Shown here piece by piece: positions 7,134-12,843 of a stretch of DNA of 64,000 nucleotides. Numbering within the stretch: the first letter of the stretch is position 1; every line of letters starts with the position of its first letter. The stretch comes from Escherichia phage finno. Location of the stretch: sequence record MN850619.1. One strand, 5' to 3'. Below the pieces are notes generated by a model. It was not told the origin of the DNA. It did not search any database and saw only the letters and a program-made list of their open reading frames with translations. A program made the position numbers and the translations under genes.

Positions 7134-7163
7134 ATTATAAGGGGCTTCAAAGCCCCTTGTCAA
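7134..7163 (-). promoter_or_regulatory. sigma70-type promoter with hairpin in the spacer
   Basis: Minus strand reads TTGACA, 18 nt spacer AGGGGCTTTGAAGCCCCT, TATAAT; about 40 nt upstream of the rIIB-like start. Confidence 0.6.
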
Positions 7164-7168
7164 GCACT

Positions 7169-9535
7169 TTAATCGTAAACTGTAGTCCCTTCTGGAACAC
7201 ATTTTACATCAAAGCCTAAGAACTTACTCACTTCAATAGGTGACACTTTATTCCAATCTAAATGGGAAAGCAAGAAGTTTTCTTGTTTTCTTTTTGAAAG
7301 GTAGTTTGTCACCTTGATAACCATACGGTCACCAGCTTTCTTAATTTTCTTGTACAGTTTTGTATCATTGTCAAGGCATTCTTTCAAAGTTTGCAATCTA
7401 CTAATAGTGTAAGTATATGCAAATGGTGCAGCAACATACTGGATTTTACCGAAAATTGCCTCTACAGCCTCTTCGTTACCTTCTAGGAAGATAGTTTTGC
7501 TAGTATCTCGTGAGTAGCAATAACCACGAGAAATCTTCCTGTTATTGAATGTAAAGTTTCTGGCAATAATCCAACTGCTTGTAAGGTCAAGAACACCATT
7601 CATGTAGGTGCGTGTCATGTACCTGTTATGATTAATCCAATGAACATCAGTTAAGCTGTCGTTCAAGAGCTTCTCATCTACTTCAATCCAGTCTTCTGGT
7701 ATCTTTTTCCAATTTGCTTTTCGGAAAACATAGACTGTCTTTCCAATAACATTAGCAACTGACTTAGCTACATCTTCTGGAGATGAGCAAAAGCATTCGC
7801 CATCAACTGTGTCACCTACTGCCTTAATGTAAAGCTGGGGTTCTTCAATTGTGTCTAAGTCTTCTGACACCTCTTTGTAGGAGGCTACACCTTCTGCTGG
7901 AACAGCTTTCCAGAGTTTTACAACACCTCTTACAGCTTCTTTACGCTGGTAATGGTGTTCCTTATCAGACATTTTCACAATCTTTAACAAGCTTTTATCA
8001 AGTTTGTGTAGATTGATTAAATCATCTAAATCTTTTTCAGTCGAGAATACAAACACAATGCCATTGTATCTGTGAAACAGGCTTGACTCGTTGGCGTAGT
8101 CTCGACATGCACCACGCAGAATCTGATTGCGGCCTACAGTCTTCTCAGTACCGTTTTTATTGCGACGGTCATTAATAACAAACAAAAACTGTTCAATTTG
8201 GCTTTTACGCATTGCGCCAAAGATATTGAACATACTTGCCTCTTGAGTGTAGGAAAGTGCTGTTGCACGAATCTTACTCTCTAAAGAGTTGAACTTGACA
8301 TAAGCAACTGGATTATAAAGATAATCTACTTTAGGGATATTGTTCCCGTTTCTATCAACCTTAATATTACCTTTGCCGTCACGTTCATAAATGACTGAGC
8401 CGTCTTCTGCGTAGATAATCCCACGACGAATGTTTAGTAATTCTTCTTCCAGAGTATCAAGTTTAACACCACCCCACTCTAGCTTTGGACACACAGCATT
8501 AAACATTTCTCGTGAGTTCAAACGTAACTCTGCATAAGCCTGTGCAGCATCCATGAGTGTAGGTTGGCTATTAACTTTCTTGATAACATCCTTTGTAATT
8601 GCTTCAGTTATCTTTTTAGTAGCCTCAATGATAACATTTTTTGTCGTATCATTCATCTGCAATGCTTCACGAGAAGCTGCAATAGCAACTGAACCAATAG
8701 GCATGTAAATGTTTACAAGGTCTACGCTCCTACGGAAAAACTCTGGCAAGACTTTGAAGAAATCATCACCAAGTAATGCTTCCATATTAACTGGATAGGC
8801 AATATTACCCATCACCACATTAAACTCTGTCCTGTTGCCACTAGAACGCCAGCTTTGCTTATGAATCATAGCATCATAAACACCCTCTTCACGGGCAATG
8901 ACGTTCATATCTGCTAACACATCATCATATACAATATTGCTTTCTGGTTTTACAGCAAAGTATGAATATACGTGACCAGCCTCTTCAAAGAACTTTGAAA
9001 TACGGTGGTCAGCAACTGCTACACGTACAGCTAAACCATTGGGTTCATTTGTTGGGTTAGTAGTAAGTTTAGTTACTTGAGGGATACCATTCTCAAGGTA
9101 AACAGAGTACTTATTAACAACACCATCAACATAACTAGATACTGTGAATGACTGAGCAATTGCAAATGGGGATTTTGAGCCGATACCCATTGCACCAATG
9201 TAATCATTAGAGTCATTCTTCGTAGAAGCCCCATAGTTCAGATACAAACTCATTACTTTGTCATGGGTTAAACCAGTTCCAAAGTCACGGACTTCAAAGT
9301 AAGGCTCAAATCGAGTAGGTAAATGCACATGGAACGGGATGTTCTCTTTTCCAGCTTCTTTCTGAGCATCTACTGCATTACATGACAGTTCACGAATCAC
9401 TGCCCTTTCTTTAAATGTGTATACACCAGAACTCAAAAGGCTGAACATTTCAGGTGTCATTGTAATCTGTGCTTGAGATGTCTCCAAAGAAGTTGAACTC
9501 TTAATCACTTCTGCGTGGTCATTTACCATGCGCAT
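7169..9535 (-). CDS. rIIA: rIIA-like protein (GHKL ATPase-like N-terminus)
   Basis: KERAVIRELSCNAVDA, RDFGTGL and SNDYIGAMGIGSKSPF match conserved T4 rIIA N-terminal motifs (recalled from memory). Confidence 0.8.
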   Translation of the reverse strand: MRMVNDHAEVIKSSTSLETSQAQITMTPEMFSLLSSGVYTFKERAVIRELSCNAVDAQKEAGKENIPFHVHLPTRFEPYFEVRDFGTGLTHDKVMSLYLNYGASTKNDSNDYIGAMGIGSKSPFAIAQSFTVSSYVDGVVNKYSVYLENGIPQVTKLTTNPTNEPNGLAVRVAVADHRISKFFEEAGHVYSYFAVKPESNIVYDDVLADMNVIAREEGVYDAMIHKQSWRSSGNRTEFNVVMGNIAYPVNMEALLGDDFFKVLPEFFRRSVDLVNIYMPIGSVAIAASREALQMNDTTKNVIIEATKKITEAITKDVIKKVNSQPTLMDAAQAYAELRLNSREMFNAVCPKLEWGGVKLDTLEEELLNIRRGIIYAEDGSVIYERDGKGNIKVDRNGNNIPKVDYLYNPVAYVKFNSLESKIRATALSYTQEASMFNIFGAMRKSQIEQFLFVINDRRNKNGTEKTVGRNQILRGACRDYANESSLFHRYNGIVFVFSTEKDLDDLINLHKLDKSLLKIVKMSDKEHHYQRKEAVRGVVKLWKAVPAEGVASYKEVSEDLDTIEEPQLYIKAVGDTVDGECFCSSPEDVAKSVANVIGKTVYVFRKANWKKIPEDWIEVDEKLLNDSLTDVHWINHNRYMTRTYMNGVLDLTSSWIIARNFTFNNRKISRGYCYSRDTSKTIFLEGNEEAVEAIFGKIQYVAAPFAYTYTISRLQTLKECLDNDTKLYKKIKKAGDRMVIKVTNYLSKRKQENFLLSHLDWNKVSPIEVSKFLGFDVKCVPEGTTVYD

Positions 9536-9563: not shown

Positions 9564-9740
9564 TTACTTATTAAACATTTTACCAGAACCACCACAAATA
9601 GGGCAACAGCCTGCTCTTGTATACCCTTCCCCGTTGCAGTAATCACACTTCTTGCACTCTGCATAGTACTTGCAAAGAAGGTAAACAAATACTGCTACAC
9701 TACCAAGTGACAGTAAAATTTCTATCCAATATGCTTGCAT
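9564..9740 (-). CDS. small membrane-anchored protein with DnaJ-type zinc finger (58 aa, not in ORF track)
   Basis: Hand translation: hydrophobic N-terminus then CDYCNGEG and CPICGGSG; GAGGTGA RBS upstream of ATG at 9740. Confidence 0.45.
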   Translation of the reverse strand: MQAYWIEILLSLGSVAVFVYLLCKYYAECKKCDYCNGEGYTRAGCCPICGGSGKMFNK

Positions 9741-10057
9741 GACTCACCTCTCATATTTTTGTAAAGGATAAAGCTTCTGTCATGAACGATACTTGTAGAT
9801 ACTGCAAAGTTACTTTCAAGCATCTGTTTATTTGGATTGTAGAAGCTTTCTTTAAACTCGTCAAGAGCAAACTGGTGATGTTGTGGAAGACCTTTTACGC
9901 AAACCTTTATTGTAATTGCTGCTGCAACCTTACCCGTCAGTTCTTCTTTAGCTGCTACTAAAATTTTGTTAAGGAACTTTTTACCATCTTCAGGTTTCTT
10001 AATATTCTCCCAACGTTCTTCTAGGACAACGTTAATGTTCATTTCTTTGATTTTCAT
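9722..10057 (-). CDS. hypothetical protein
   Basis: 111 aa ORF downstream of NAMPT gene. Confidence 0.55.
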   Translation of the reverse strand: MKIKEMNINVVLEERWENIKKPEDGKKFLNKILVAAKEELTGKVAAAITIKVCVKGLPQHHQFALDEFKESFYNPNKQMLESNFAVSTSIVHDRSFILYKNMRGESCKHIG

Positions 10058-10071
10058 AATCTTCTCCAGAA

Positions 10072-10096
10072 ATTAAAAAGGCTCCCGTAGGAGCCT
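10072..10096 (-). terminator. rho-independent terminator after NAMPT gene
   Basis: GGCTCC-CGTA-GGAGCC hairpin followed on minus strand by TTTTTAATT. Confidence 0.7.
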
Positions 10097-10110
10097 CTTA
10101 TCATATACTT

Positions 10111-11892
10111 TTAAAGCTGCTTGTCAATATTATTTCGAATATCACCAAGAGTTGTGTAACCGAACTGCTCAGAGTCACTAAAGACTAAACGTAAAGCACA
10201 AGCTGGGTGGTCAAGTACATCTGCAAAACTCTGGAATCCATAGCCATCTACAGCTTTCAGCTTATCACCATCCCACATAGGTGCTACACCACCAAAGGCA
10301 GATTTCTTAACACCACTATCTGTTTTAGGGTCTTTTGCAAGCATAATCTCTTTACCACCAATGCTTGCAAGAGTTGCTTTGACAGCAAATGCAAAGGTGT
10401 CACGAGTCATGTACTGGTAAGTGTAAGAACCTACGCCAAACACCACGTTAGAGCTTGCAAAACCCATTTCATACAGACGCTTCAGGATTTCGTTTGCACG
10501 TTCCAGTGTGATAGAGTCACCATAGATAAGGCCGATATGCTCGTCCAGTACCTTAAATCCTTTAGAGTTAATAGTTCCCCCAAAGATGTTGTACAGTGTC
10601 TTAATAGCTCCATCAATCTCAGCTACAGGACGTGTTACAACGTTTGCAGAGCCAACCATATAAGCATTTTTCAACATCACTGTATCAGCAACTTCAAAGT
10701 CTTCTCGGTCAACAACCATTTCGTAGCCTTCTGACAGTAGCCATCCAGCAATACCATAGCTGATGTTTTCAAGCTTCATGTTCAGAACAGCATTCAGCAT
10801 TGTGTCACTGGCTTCCAGCTTGCTTAGGTGCTCGTAATAAGCCTTTTTAGCACACTCTAAGTGGATTGCTTTATAACCTGTGACAATATGTACAGGGTCT
10901 CCAGAGTCAGGACGAATTACCAGTTTACCGTCACGTTCCATAATTTCTTTACGAAGTGCTGGTAAGATTTCTGACACAGTTCTCCAGAAGTTATAAGTGT
11001 CTGAAACAATACTTGCAATACCAGTTGGGTAAGTTTCTGTTAAGAAACGACGGAAGGTTTGTAACTCACCTTTAAATCGTCTTTCTTCTTCAACCAACTC
11101 GTTACCACCTTCCCAAGCAATGTTTGCACACATTACAGAGTGTTCAGTGGCTGGTACAGAGCTTCCAATATCAGAGATTGGATAGGTCTGCCCATAGATA
11201 CGTTTAGCCGTGTATACAGCAGGGAAGCTATCAGTCCCTTTAAAGCTGGTTAAGTGTCCTACAGCGTTGAATGCGTCATCAGTAAAGCCGGACATACCAC
11301 GCATAGCAAAGTCATGGCACTGATAAGGTAAATGCAAGTCGTTGTCGCAAGTGAGGTCAGCCCACTTCTTACAGATACGTTTGTAGTGCAATGCAATAGT
11401 TGCAATGGTGCAAGCCTTCCAAATCTCAGCAGAGAAAGCGTCTTCTAGATAACCTGCTACCCAATGGAAACCTGAAACAGTGTTCTGGAAGACAATCATT
11501 GGAACACGCATAGGAACAACTGTACCTTCTTCTACAGCGTATACTTCAACTGGTAGATAGCCTAAATCGTGAAGTGCTTCCCAATGCTCTCGACCGATAG
11601 CATCTTTACCCAGAACACCATTCATGACTTCTAAGATTTCGTCAACTGCTCCTTTTTTATCACGTTCAAAGAAAGTGGCGTTCCAGTGGTCTATCAAGTA
11701 ATCTTTAACAAAACGTTGAATACCAAAAGCTACTACACCATCAATTGCTAAGGGGCTGTTAAACCATTTGTCGCTACGTGGTGTCAGGTTGAACATCAAG
11801 TAATCTGTTGCACTGGGGTATTGGTAAACATGGCCAGATTTGTAAGCGTCCGCGTTTAAACCTGCTGGTACTGCATAAAGTGATTTAGTCAT
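10111..11892 (-). CDS. nadV: nicotinamide phosphoribosyltransferase (NAMPT)
   Basis: 593 aa; N-terminal ADAYKSGHVYQYP is characteristic of NAMPT. Confidence 0.8.
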   Translation of the reverse strand: MTKSLYAVPAGLNADAYKSGHVYQYPSATDYLMFNLTPRSDKWFNSPLAIDGVVAFGIQRFVKDYLIDHWNATFFERDKKGAVDEILEVMNGVLGKDAIGREHWEALHDLGYLPVEVYAVEEGTVVPMRVPMIVFQNTVSGFHWVAGYLEDAFSAEIWKACTIATIALHYKRICKKWADLTCDNDLHLPYQCHDFAMRGMSGFTDDAFNAVGHLTSFKGTDSFPAVYTAKRIYGQTYPISDIGSSVPATEHSVMCANIAWEGGNELVEEERRFKGELQTFRRFLTETYPTGIASIVSDTYNFWRTVSEILPALRKEIMERDGKLVIRPDSGDPVHIVTGYKAIHLECAKKAYYEHLSKLEASDTMLNAVLNMKLENISYGIAGWLLSEGYEMVVDREDFEVADTVMLKNAYMVGSANVVTRPVAEIDGAIKTLYNIFGGTINSKGFKVLDEHIGLIYGDSITLERANEILKRLYEMGFASSNVVFGVGSYTYQYMTRDTFAFAVKATLASIGGKEIMLAKDPKTDSGVKKSAFGGVAPMWDGDKLKAVDGYGFQSFADVLDHPACALRLVFSDSEQFGYTTLGDIRNNIDKQL

Positions 11893-11912
11893 CTTTTAAT
11901 CTCTCTCAAAAT

Positions 11913-11928
11913 GGGGCTTTCAAGCCCC
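11913..11928 (-). promoter_or_regulatory. GGGGCTT/AAGCCCC stem-loop between prs and NAMPT genes
   Basis: Hairpin GGGGCTTTCAAGCCCC; same stem family as the 5' cassettes and the 7141-7158 promoter hairpin. Confidence 0.45.
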
Positions 11929-11937
11929 TATAAAGTT

Positions 11938-12843
11938 TCAATCAATGGTTGCTACAGTAACTTGGGCGTAATGTGTTAAGCCACGGTCTTTAGCTTCACC
12001 TAAAGAGTTTGTAGTGTAGATATGGTCAATACCATTGTCAAGTAAGTTTTCAACACCTTTAGAGAAAATACCATGAGTTACATAGAGTTCCACACGTTTT
12101 GCACCTGCTTCACGGAGATGTTTCGCTGCTTCTATGAAGGTTCGACCACCATCACAGATATCATCCAGAATCATGACGGTTTTATCTGTCAAATCAGCAT
12201 CGTCAAGGATTCGCATACCAGTGATTTCTCCCGTCTTAAGATTGCGCACTTTAGACATTGTGATGTATGGTTTATCCACCTCTTTAGCAGTCTCTGCAAT
12301 CTTCTTAGCAGCACCTGCATCTGGGGCTACTAAGTAATCAATTAGAGGGTCATTTGCATAGTGAACTGCAATTTCCTTTTGAGGAATACTCTGGAAGCAG
12401 TTAAACAGGTTATCTGGTACATAGCTGTGAGGGTCAACTGCACAGACTGCATCAAAACCCATTGCATTAACCTGTTGTGCAAACACTTTCAAAGCTGCTG
12501 CATCACCTTTAAACATGTGACGGTCGTAACGTGCATTTGGCAAATAGTAAAAGATAGCAGTCTTCATAGCAAACTTATGGGGTACTAAATCGTCAATTGC
12601 TTCTTTAGCAAGTGCCACAGCAAATAATGTGTCTTTGTCATAACCCTTTACAATCATAATCACGTTGTTGATGGATGATGCTGCATAAGCAGTAAAATCA
12701 ACAAGCTCTTGTGAAAAGTGTCCACCAATCTCACCAGAAGGGAACTGGATGATGTTAAACTCTTCTTCATGAGACCCTTTTGTCGGTGAATGAATTATAA
12801 CACGAATAGATGTTTTCATAGTTTTCTCTCTCTTTATTCCCAA
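11938..12843 (-). CDS. prs: ribose-phosphate pyrophosphokinase (PRPP synthetase)
   Basis: 301 aa; VMILDDICDGGRTF is the PRPP-binding phosphoribosyltransferase motif. Confidence 0.8.
   Translation of the reverse strand: MGIKREKTMKTSIRVIIHSPTKGSHEEEFNIIQFPSGEIGGHFSQELVDFTAYAASSINNVIMIVKGYDKDTLFAVALAKEAIDDLVPHKFAMKTAIFYYLPNARYDRHMFKGDAAALKVFAQQVNAMGFDAVCAVDPHSYVPDNLFNCFQSIPQKEIAVHYANDPLIDYLVAPDAGAAKKIAETAKEVDKPYITMSKVRNLKTGEITGMRILDDADLTDKTVMILDDICDGGRTFIEAAKHLREAGAKRVELYVTHGIFSKGVENLLDNGIDHIYTTNSLGEAKDRGLTHYAQVTVATID

Follow-up and report, generated by a model that had tools for sequence, protein, structure and literature searches.

Identification of a small open reading frame 5´ of rIIA

We analysed a stretch of 64,000 nucleotides from Escherichia phage finno (sequence record MN850619.1; hereafter the window, numbered from its first letter), which contains a small open reading frame (ORF) on the minus strand directly 5´ of the rIIA gene. 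The small ORF occupies positions 9564..9740, begins with an ATG and comprises 58 codons and a stop codon, with the product MQAYWIEILLSLGSVAVFVYLLCKYYAECKKCDYCNGEGYTRAGCCPICGGSGKMFNK. An initial annotation, made from the letters alone, had translated this product by hand and described a hydrophobic N-terminal helix, two CxxCxGxG motifs and a GAGGTGA ribosome-binding site. Retranslation of the window and the ORF list reproduce the protein exactly, and all three features are present. The motifs are CDYCNGEG (residues 32–39) and CPICGGSG (residues 46–53), and the best 19-residue hydrophobic window covers residues 5–23, with a mean Kyte-Doolittle value of 2.11. The Shine-Dalgarno heptamer GAGGTGA (9744..9750, minus strand), which is complementary to the 3´ end of 16S rRNA, lies inside the 3´ end of an upstream ORF of 111 residues, and its GAGG core ends 6 nt 5´ of the ATG.

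The size of the small ORF is not significant by itself, because 57 ORFs of at least 30 residues overlap the surrounding 7-kb stretch. Unlike the ORF length, the pair of CxxCxGxG motifs is significant. The pattern C..C.G.G has only two occurrences when all six frames of the 64-kb window are scanned, and both lie in the small ORF, 14 residues apart; shuffled windows contain a mean of 0.155.

The small ORF is a known, conserved phage gene

The small ORF was initially taken to be unannotated, which holds only for the ORF track, with its cutoff of 60 residues, and for some GenBank records, such as that of phage warpig, which has no feature inside the matching stretch. This impression arises from the length cutoff and from uneven annotation in GenBank, through which a real gene at 9564..9740 is passed over. 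The window region shares 95 to 98% identity with many Felixounavirus (Felix O1-like) phages. The small ORF product is 97% identical to Felix O1 ORF131 (Felix01p243, NP_945023.1), which has equal length and equal position; the two proteins differ at residue 29, which is C in the window copy and H in Felix O1, and at residue 48, which is I and M, respectively. It also matches PHROG 3931, a family without assigned function, with residues 1–58 aligned to the 59 profile positions (E 8e-32). The gene is annotated in Felix O1, Mushroom, Bas63, Moogle, Sf13, PC79-13 and many other phages, under various labels: "hypothetical membrane protein" for Felix O1 ORF131, "putative membrane protein" for the orthologue of Bas63/JohannRWettstein (bas63_0083, g83), and DnaJ-like in the Mushroom and Tian records. 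The small ORF is a known, conserved and uncharacterised gene for a phage micro-protein, not a new one.

Two sets of records with irregular labels match the same region. Three Salmonella phages GEC_vB_* (MW006474.1, MW006475.1 and MW006482.1) carry an overlapping feature called 'baseplate distal hub protein', an evident misannotation. The records MG065664.1 and MG065668.1 ('Campylobacter phage A132/A126') are 95.8% identical to the window region over 1.4 kb, which most likely reflects mislabelling or contamination and not an origin from Campylobacter phages.

The reading frame, whose loss in relatives would speak against a gene, is kept. It is open in 40/40 loci drawn from GenBank phage records and IMG/VR, each with a purine-rich ribosome-binding site in front, which is GAGGTGA throughout Felixounavirus and GGAGA or GGAGAA in Mooglevirus and Suspvirus. 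The ratio of non-synonymous to synonymous polymorphism (pN/pS), calculated from codon 8 to the end to avoid the overlap with the 111-residue ORF, is 0.093 in Felixounavirus (23 distinct nucleotide sequences, 253 pairs), where the variable sites at codon positions 1/2/3 number 7/6/29; the Mooglevirus value is 0.16. In a tblastn search, 311 of the 317 matching records span at least 80% of the small protein in one piece. Frameshifted products (P0003–P0007) are singletons or come from one isolate series. The two inspected cases are phiWec177, in which one G is missing from a G run (window 9629–9632), and NJ12, in which an A run has one extra A. In both, the sequence past the indel is still conserved in the original frame, and these frameshifts look like sequencing errors or very recent lesions.

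The small ORF is therefore a genuine coding gene under strong purifying selection. Small ORFs are plentiful in the region and a few relatives carry frameshifts, as would be expected of a chance ORF or of a non-coding element from which no protein is produced. The selection signal in the comparative data, with variation mostly at third positions, rules this out. Proteins of different genera share 40 to 55% identity around an invariant Cys/Gly pattern, and the frameshifts are single-base homopolymer indels confined to single records or one isolate series. An Rfam scan of the region returned nothing meaningful and no family covering the small ORF. We consider the probability of a chance ORF to be negligible.

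A single zinc knuckle predicted from the pair of CxxCxGxG motifs

The two motifs lie six residues apart and span codons 32–53 (9582..9647, minus strand), as defined by invariant columns and a motif scan. A membrane helix followed by both motifs is found in every lineage of relatives. The residues invariant in both clades of homologues (described below) are M1, E7, S11, C32, C35, G37, G39, C46, C49, G51 and G53. K54 and C45 are almost always kept, and variation is seen at C23 and C29. Because the invariant core contains only four cysteines, we predict that C32, C35, C46 and C49 form a single Zn(Cys)4 knuckle.

The family profile aligns with the cysteine-rich domain of E. coli DnaJ (PDB code: 1exk) with an E-value of 1e-11, both at repeats 1 and 2 and at repeats 3 and 4, and also with DNAJA3 (2ctt; E 1.7e-6) and Anti-TRAP (3lcz; E 0.002). 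Among 11 family members the Pfam matches are all weak: PF00684 in 8/11 (best E 3.3e-5), DUF5351 in 10/11 and Anti-TRAP in 6/11 (sub-threshold, best E 0.044). An exhaustive search with a hidden Markov model (HMM) retrieved 1208 proteins at E-values up to 1e-3, most of them with 2 to 13 repeats and full-length DnaJ included. The AlphaFold2 model, built from an 11-sequence alignment with a predicted local distance difference test (pLDDT) score of 78, consists of a helix (residues 4–27) followed by small hairpins. Its best fold matches in the PDB are the Anti-TRAP structures 3ld0, 3lcz and 2bx9, with a root-mean-square deviation of 1.0 Å over 28 columns, 36% identity and a probability of 0.99. DnaJA2, the DnaJ cysteine-rich domain, the zinc modules of UvrA and BSD2 come next. 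Among viral models, the matches are the homologues from Sf18, RB49 and phiEa21-4, along with numerous further small phage proteins of the "DnaJ-like" kind. The DnaJ-type zinc finger proposed initially thus stands at the level of motif and profile, and must be narrowed in other respects, since the protein lacks a J domain, carries only half of the four repeats and is nearer to Anti-TRAP.

In Anti-TRAP, a protein of 53 residues, the two CxxCxGxG motifs bind a single zinc on which function depends, and the knuckle serves as a protein-binding inhibitor module (PMC2896485). The phage protein resembles Anti-TRAP (RtpA, PF15777) in its length (about 53 to 58 residues for the two), in the two motifs six residues apart and in the one predicted zinc knuckle, and Anti-TRAP is its best structural match. 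In contrast, Anti-TRAP is soluble and assembles into trimers and dodecamers via a C-terminal helix, whereas in the phage protein the only helix is the N-terminal membrane helix, and the knuckle is followed by just five residues. To our knowledge, the enterobacterial hosts have no TRAP. For want of the C-terminal oligomerisation helix and of a host TRAP, the small protein does not belong to the Anti-TRAP family, though its predicted structure is closest to it.

A second precedent comes from plants. Arabidopsis FIP (FtsH5-interacting protein, At5g02160), one of several DnaJ-like zinc-finger proteins of plastid membranes, has a size of about 9 kDa after removal of the transit peptide. It crosses the membrane with a single helix, its short N-terminus lies in the lumen, and on the stromal side two CxxCxGxG motifs build a C4 finger; its binding partner is the membrane protease FtsH5 (PMC5915565). 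Judged by this published description alone, the phage protein would resemble FIP in architecture and in predicted orientation. FIP is reported from land plants only, and an FtsH interaction is known for FIP only.

The N-terminal helix and its predicted orientation

The predicted transmembrane helix covers codons 4–27 (9660..9731, minus strand), with a hydrophobic core at residues 5–23, and is indicated by the AlphaFold2 helix, by hydropathy and by charge. E7 and S11 (codons 7–11, window 9708–9722) are invariant in Ounavirinae and, in an i, i+4 relationship, lie on one face of the helix. Their equivalents are E4 and S8 in the RB49-like proteins, and E8 and T12 in the distant metagenomic variant P0101. 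The retention of this pair in both clades suggests that the helix is a specific contact surface rather than a mere anchor, and hints at a specific intramembrane contact or at self-association.

In 10/10 diverse homologues the stretch before the helix is free of lysine and arginine, and every basic residue is C-terminal to the helix; in most of the ten, an acidic residue (E7 or its equivalent) precedes or opens the helix. By the positive-inside rule, basic residues mark the cytoplasmic side, and the Pf3 coat protein offers a precedent for an N-out/C-in protein. The phage protein has the sequence characters of Pf3-coat-like proteins, namely a short non-basic N-terminal tail, one helix and C-terminal basic residues. 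From the lack of basic residues before the helix and the analogy with Pf3 we predict an N-out/C-in topology, which would place the knuckle in the reducing cytoplasm.

Neighbouring genes and candidate expression signals

Downstream, rIIA (788 residues; 7169..9535, minus strand) starts 28 nt 3´ of the stop codon of the small ORF. Upstream, the 111-residue ORF (9722..10057, minus strand; PHROG 4262) overlaps the first 19 nt of the small ORF, an overlap that is kept in Felixounavirus, Mooglevirus and Suspvirus. The initial placement of the gene between NAMPT and rIIA is accordingly right on the rIIA side, and on the NAMPT side it overlooks this conserved ORF. The 111-residue ORF and the small ORF are probably co-transcribed. 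The 111-residue protein has no match in a Pfam scan and no similarity to NrdH in a direct comparison; its homologue set is shallow, and its AlphaFold2 model is all-helical and of low confidence (pLDDT 55).

A sigma-70-like promoter match, TTGACA-16-TATGAT (11/12 consensus positions; 10100..10127, minus strand), lies at the end of NAMPT and partly overlaps its coding sequence. It abuts a hairpin followed by a U run that resembles an intrinsic terminator (10076..10099, minus strand; −16.6 kcal/mol, z −3.0), just past the NAMPT stop codon. The arrangement of promoter-like and abutting terminator-like sequences is conserved in Felixounavirus, in Mooglevirus Sf13 and in Suspvirus. It might be a junction at which the NAMPT transcript would terminate and the host polymerase would re-initiate early, over the 111-residue ORF, the small ORF and rIIA. 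The promoter part of this reading is suggestive only, because promoter matches in the region are no more frequent than in shuffled sequence (19 versus 18.2 expected). Early expression of the small ORF is plausible in view of the near-consensus promoter upstream. A perfect 12/12 sigma-70 consensus, TTGACA-18-TATAAT (7134–7163, minus strand), occupies the short gap between rIIA and rIIB, and rIIB may have a strong early promoter of its own.

Distribution and genomic context in relatives

The gene is found in Felixounavirus, Mooglevirus, Suspvirus, Kolesnikvirus, Yersinia phage P778, metagenomic variants and the RB49-like T-even phages. A word-indexed protein search returned close relatives only, and the distant ones were recovered by the exhaustive HMM search and by inspection of the corresponding positions. 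The Mooglevirus and Suspvirus orthologues share 48 to 55% identity with the window protein and keep the order NAMPT, 111-residue ORF, small ORF, rIIA. In Yersinia phage P778, which has no 111-residue gene, the small gene lies directly between NAMPT and rIIA. Erwinia phage Tian (Kolesnikvirus, OQ818709.1; locus L048, 2262–2426) has, immediately 5´ of an rIIA that is only 52% identical over the first 300 residues, a gene whose 54-residue product combines a membrane helix with two CxxCxGxG motifs; tblastn with the window protein did not detect this orthologue, which the record labels 'dnaJ / chaperone protein DnaJ'. The metagenomic variant P0017 is encoded between a 111-residue ORF and an rIIA-type gene whose product matches HATPase_c_3; in the rIIA orthologue on locus L041 the match to this domain lies in the N-terminal part. 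P0101 is a distant member (profile E 1.8e-7), and the rIIA that follows its gene shares 82% identity with the window rIIA over the first 93 residues. On the evidence of these relatives, the small protein evolves much faster than rIIA, yet it retains its place and its motifs. Phage Tian also has a ProQ-like gene between NAMPT and the homologue of the 111-residue ORF.

A second clade comprises the RB49-like T-even phages (Krischvirus) and diverged metagenomic relatives, whose proteins of 52 to 59 residues are 42 to 45% identical to the window protein. This family (EpJSE_00047/RB49 Q7Y3T0) shares the helix, the ExxxS pair and the Cys/Gly pattern with the window protein, in a different setting. 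Its gene lies far from rIIA, precedes DUF7570/55.2 and in all cases has an overlap of 8 to 11 nt with the 3´ end of a glutaredoxin gene of the nrdH type, whereas the window gene adjoins rIIA. The overlap is seen in phage JSE (L006, 2236–2653), whose NrdH-like protein has a CYGC motif, and in three metagenomic loci (L045, L046 and L047).

The association with rIIA is robust within Ounavirinae, where it is seen in four genera and in further Ounavirinae-like relatives, and is not universal. Six rIIA-bearing lineages, namely Slopekvirus, Littlefixvirus, G7C, Det7, Streptomyces phage Bmoc and Aeromonas phage 50AhydR13PP, have no CxxCxGxG gene 5´ of rIIA. T4 rIIA.1, which occupies the same slot 5´ of rIIA, was considered as a counterpart and rejected, being an unrelated, soluble helical protein.

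Unrelated small hydrophobic ORFs without a Cys motif do occur immediately 5´ of rIIA in two of these lineages. One encodes 78 residues in Klebsiella phage R4_1 (Slopekvirus; L049, 1754–1990), and the other is gp32.1 of the N4-like phage G7C, with 37 residues (L051, 1788–1901). A small membrane protein ahead of rIIA may be a recurring arrangement.

A proposed membrane-tethered protein-binding module

Taken together, the reading that we favour, and consider somewhat probable, is that the small ORF is a genuine early phage gene for an N-out/C-in, membrane-tethered zinc-knuckle module that binds other proteins. The gene would be transcribed early by the host RNA polymerase, together with the 111-residue ORF and rIIA. 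The 58-residue product would insert into the inner membrane in the manner of the Pf3 coat protein, leaving a very short N-terminal tail on the outer side and the C-terminus on the inner side, so that the knuckle of 25 residues would be placed at the cytoplasmic face of the membrane. There the two CxxCxGxG motifs would fold back upon one another, with one zinc ion bound by the four conserved cysteines, as in Anti-TRAP. With one helix and one knuckle, the protein is far too small to be expected to act as an enzyme or as a DnaJ co-chaperone. The precedents of Anti-TRAP, a stoichiometric inhibitor, and of FIP, which binds FtsH5, instead point to a membrane-tethered adaptor or inhibitor. Such a module would offer two contact surfaces, the cytoplasmic zinc knuckle and the polar E7-x3-S11 stripe in the outer half of the membrane helix.

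Three other roles were weighed. The labels given by annotators (Mushroom, Tian) and the significant profile similarity to the DnaJ cysteine-rich domain would fit a DnaJ/Hsp40-type chaperone that holds unfolded proteins or engages DnaK at the membrane, and J-less DnaJ-like zinc-finger proteins of plastids do act as holdases (PMC5915565, PMC5818400). The phage protein shares with the cysteine-rich domain (PF00684, 1exk) the CxxCxGxG repeat, and its six-residue spacing is that of DnaJ repeats 3 to 4. However, DnaJ/Hsp40 has four repeats and two zinc centres, whereas the phage protein has two repeats and thus one predicted centre. Within its 58 residues there is no J domain, glycine/phenylalanine-rich region or C-terminal substrate-binding domain; no match to the J domain (PF00226) was found in the small protein or the family members even at E-values up to 10, and residues 1–27 form a hydrophobic helix in its place, which would anchor the protein in the membrane. 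The NCBIfam DnaJ models score it at about 14 bits against cutoffs of 338 and 377. The labels "heat shock protein" and "chaperone protein DnaJ" in the records overreach, and a chaperone role appears highly unlikely. At odds with the charge distribution is the reversed, N-in/C-out topology, in which a periplasmic, disulfide-bonded cysteine domain would serve superinfection exclusion or sense lysis timing like T4 RI. Such a protein would suit a place beside genes labelled 'lysis inhibitor', many CxxCxGxG repeat proteins retrieved with the profile carry signal peptides or lipoboxes (P0062, P0076, P0161), and the segment after the helix is net acidic in Mooglevirus and Suspvirus. A signal anchor or Sec signal peptide, however, normally needs a lysine or arginine before the helix, which every homologue lacks, the basic residues being all C-terminal; moreover, the closest motif relatives, DnaJ and Anti-TRAP, are cytoplasmic zinc proteins. 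We hold the reversed orientation to be improbable. A holin or antiholin (T4 T, T4 RI) or another lysis function was also considered and rejected: the neighbours are NAMPT, the 111-residue ORF and rIIA/rIIB, with no lysis genes adjacent, the predicted topology is wrong for it, and the Pfam and PHROGs scans of the small protein matched no holin family.

The gene order of the second clade raises a further alternative, a membrane-tethered thiol-redox element whose cysteines would cycle between a zinc-bound or reduced state and a disulfide. With a glutaredoxin-type partner, such an element would either switch with the redox state or provide the redoxin with a docking site. The overlap with the nrdH-like gene in RB49-like phages and three diverged metagenomic relatives, together with the CYGC motif in JSE, is what such a partnership would predict. 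In 3/11 family members there are also weak matches (best E 0.005) to eukaryotic GRXCR1/2, proteins in which the matched Cys-rich C-terminal domain is joined to a glutaredoxin domain. These matches are sub-threshold, however, and a gene overlap by itself is no proof of a functional link. Ounavirinae have no glutaredoxin beside the gene, no nrdH-like sequence was found in the 64-kb window, and the 111-residue neighbour does not resemble NrdH. We rate the redox element as a minor possibility.

For the protein-binding module that we favour, the first-ranked partner is the RII membrane-protection module encoded downstream, a tentative choice that falls clearly short of likely. The gene lies directly 5´ of rIIA in every Ounavirinae-type lineage, including the diverged P0101 and phage P778 without the 111-residue gene. 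The early membrane-associated factor that the initial annotation tied to the position upstream of rIIA is plausible, the functional link being drawn from synteny within one subfamily. We give smaller weight to a host inner-membrane protein such as FtsH, which would follow the analogy with plant FIP, and to a glutaredoxin in thiol-redox exchange, which would follow the RB49-like gene order. In Bas63, rIIA and rIIB (g84 and g85) are needed to overcome QatABCD, and the NAD-salvage genes g79/g80, just upstream, counter Sir2-HerA (PMC11482910), so that the small gene stands in the same string as two experimentally supported counter-defence modules. A bolder and rather unlikely proposal is that the small protein is a third component of an RII 'membrane integrity protector', which would recruit or regulate RIIA/RIIB via the ExxxS face and the knuckle, or that it directly neutralises FtsH or a QatB- or RexB-like membrane effector. 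If true, it would be the founding example of phage-encoded membrane-tethered zinc-knuckle inhibitors.

Several observations weigh against the favoured reading or parts of it. For the knuckle, the window sequence alone reaches no Pfam or NCBIfam threshold and has no PF00684 match, its best sub-threshold matches in these scans being DUF5351 (E 0.0015) and DnaJ (E 0.02); the Foldseek E-value of 0.36 is non-significant, the domain being tiny. For the orientation, the 15 residues past the helix are net acidic in Mooglevirus and Suspvirus, and the charge argument is one of lysine and arginine counts alone. Many profile matches are exported or lipoprotein-like repeat proteins, which indicates that the motif can work outside the cytoplasm. 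The rIIA link is seen within one subfamily whose overall gene order is conserved, and it is not shared by the RB49-like homologue with its nrdH overlap, by T4, or by the six rIIA lineages listed above. The paper on the Bas63 knockout screen nowhere mentions g83 (PMC11482910), and we found no transcript, peptide or phenotype for the small protein in the searched literature on Felix O1-like phages.

The small protein nevertheless makes a clean and testable phage micro-protein, in which strong purifying selection acts on what is predicted to be a membrane anchor joined to a minimal protein-binding zinc knuckle. If its partner is RIIA/RIIB or a host membrane protein, it would give a tractable handle on the very old question of how RII proteins associate with the membrane and block abortive infection.

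Variation in the surrounding gene order

The genes around NAMPT vary among relatives. In Felix O1 (L001, 339–830) and Mushroom (L002, 1–334), an HNH homing endonuclease gene lies between the genes for ribose-phosphate pyrophosphokinase and NAMPT. In the window these two genes are adjacent (11892–11938), without the endonuclease. In a protein of 116 residues from a 95.7-kb metagenomic contig (P0167), an N-terminal segment of the pyrophosphokinase (window ORF 11938..12843) runs on into the C-terminal half of the 111-residue protein (window 9722–10057), which implies a natural deletion variant without NAMPT. Between NAMPT and the 111-residue ORF, some relatives have an extra small ORF that is absent from the window: bas63_0081 in Bas63 (L003, 1834–2178), gp4 in Moogle (L004, 1973–2194) and a DUF7279 gene on locus L041 (1197–1412). 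These extra ORFs account for the insertions of about 350 bp that split the nucleotide matches into two pieces.

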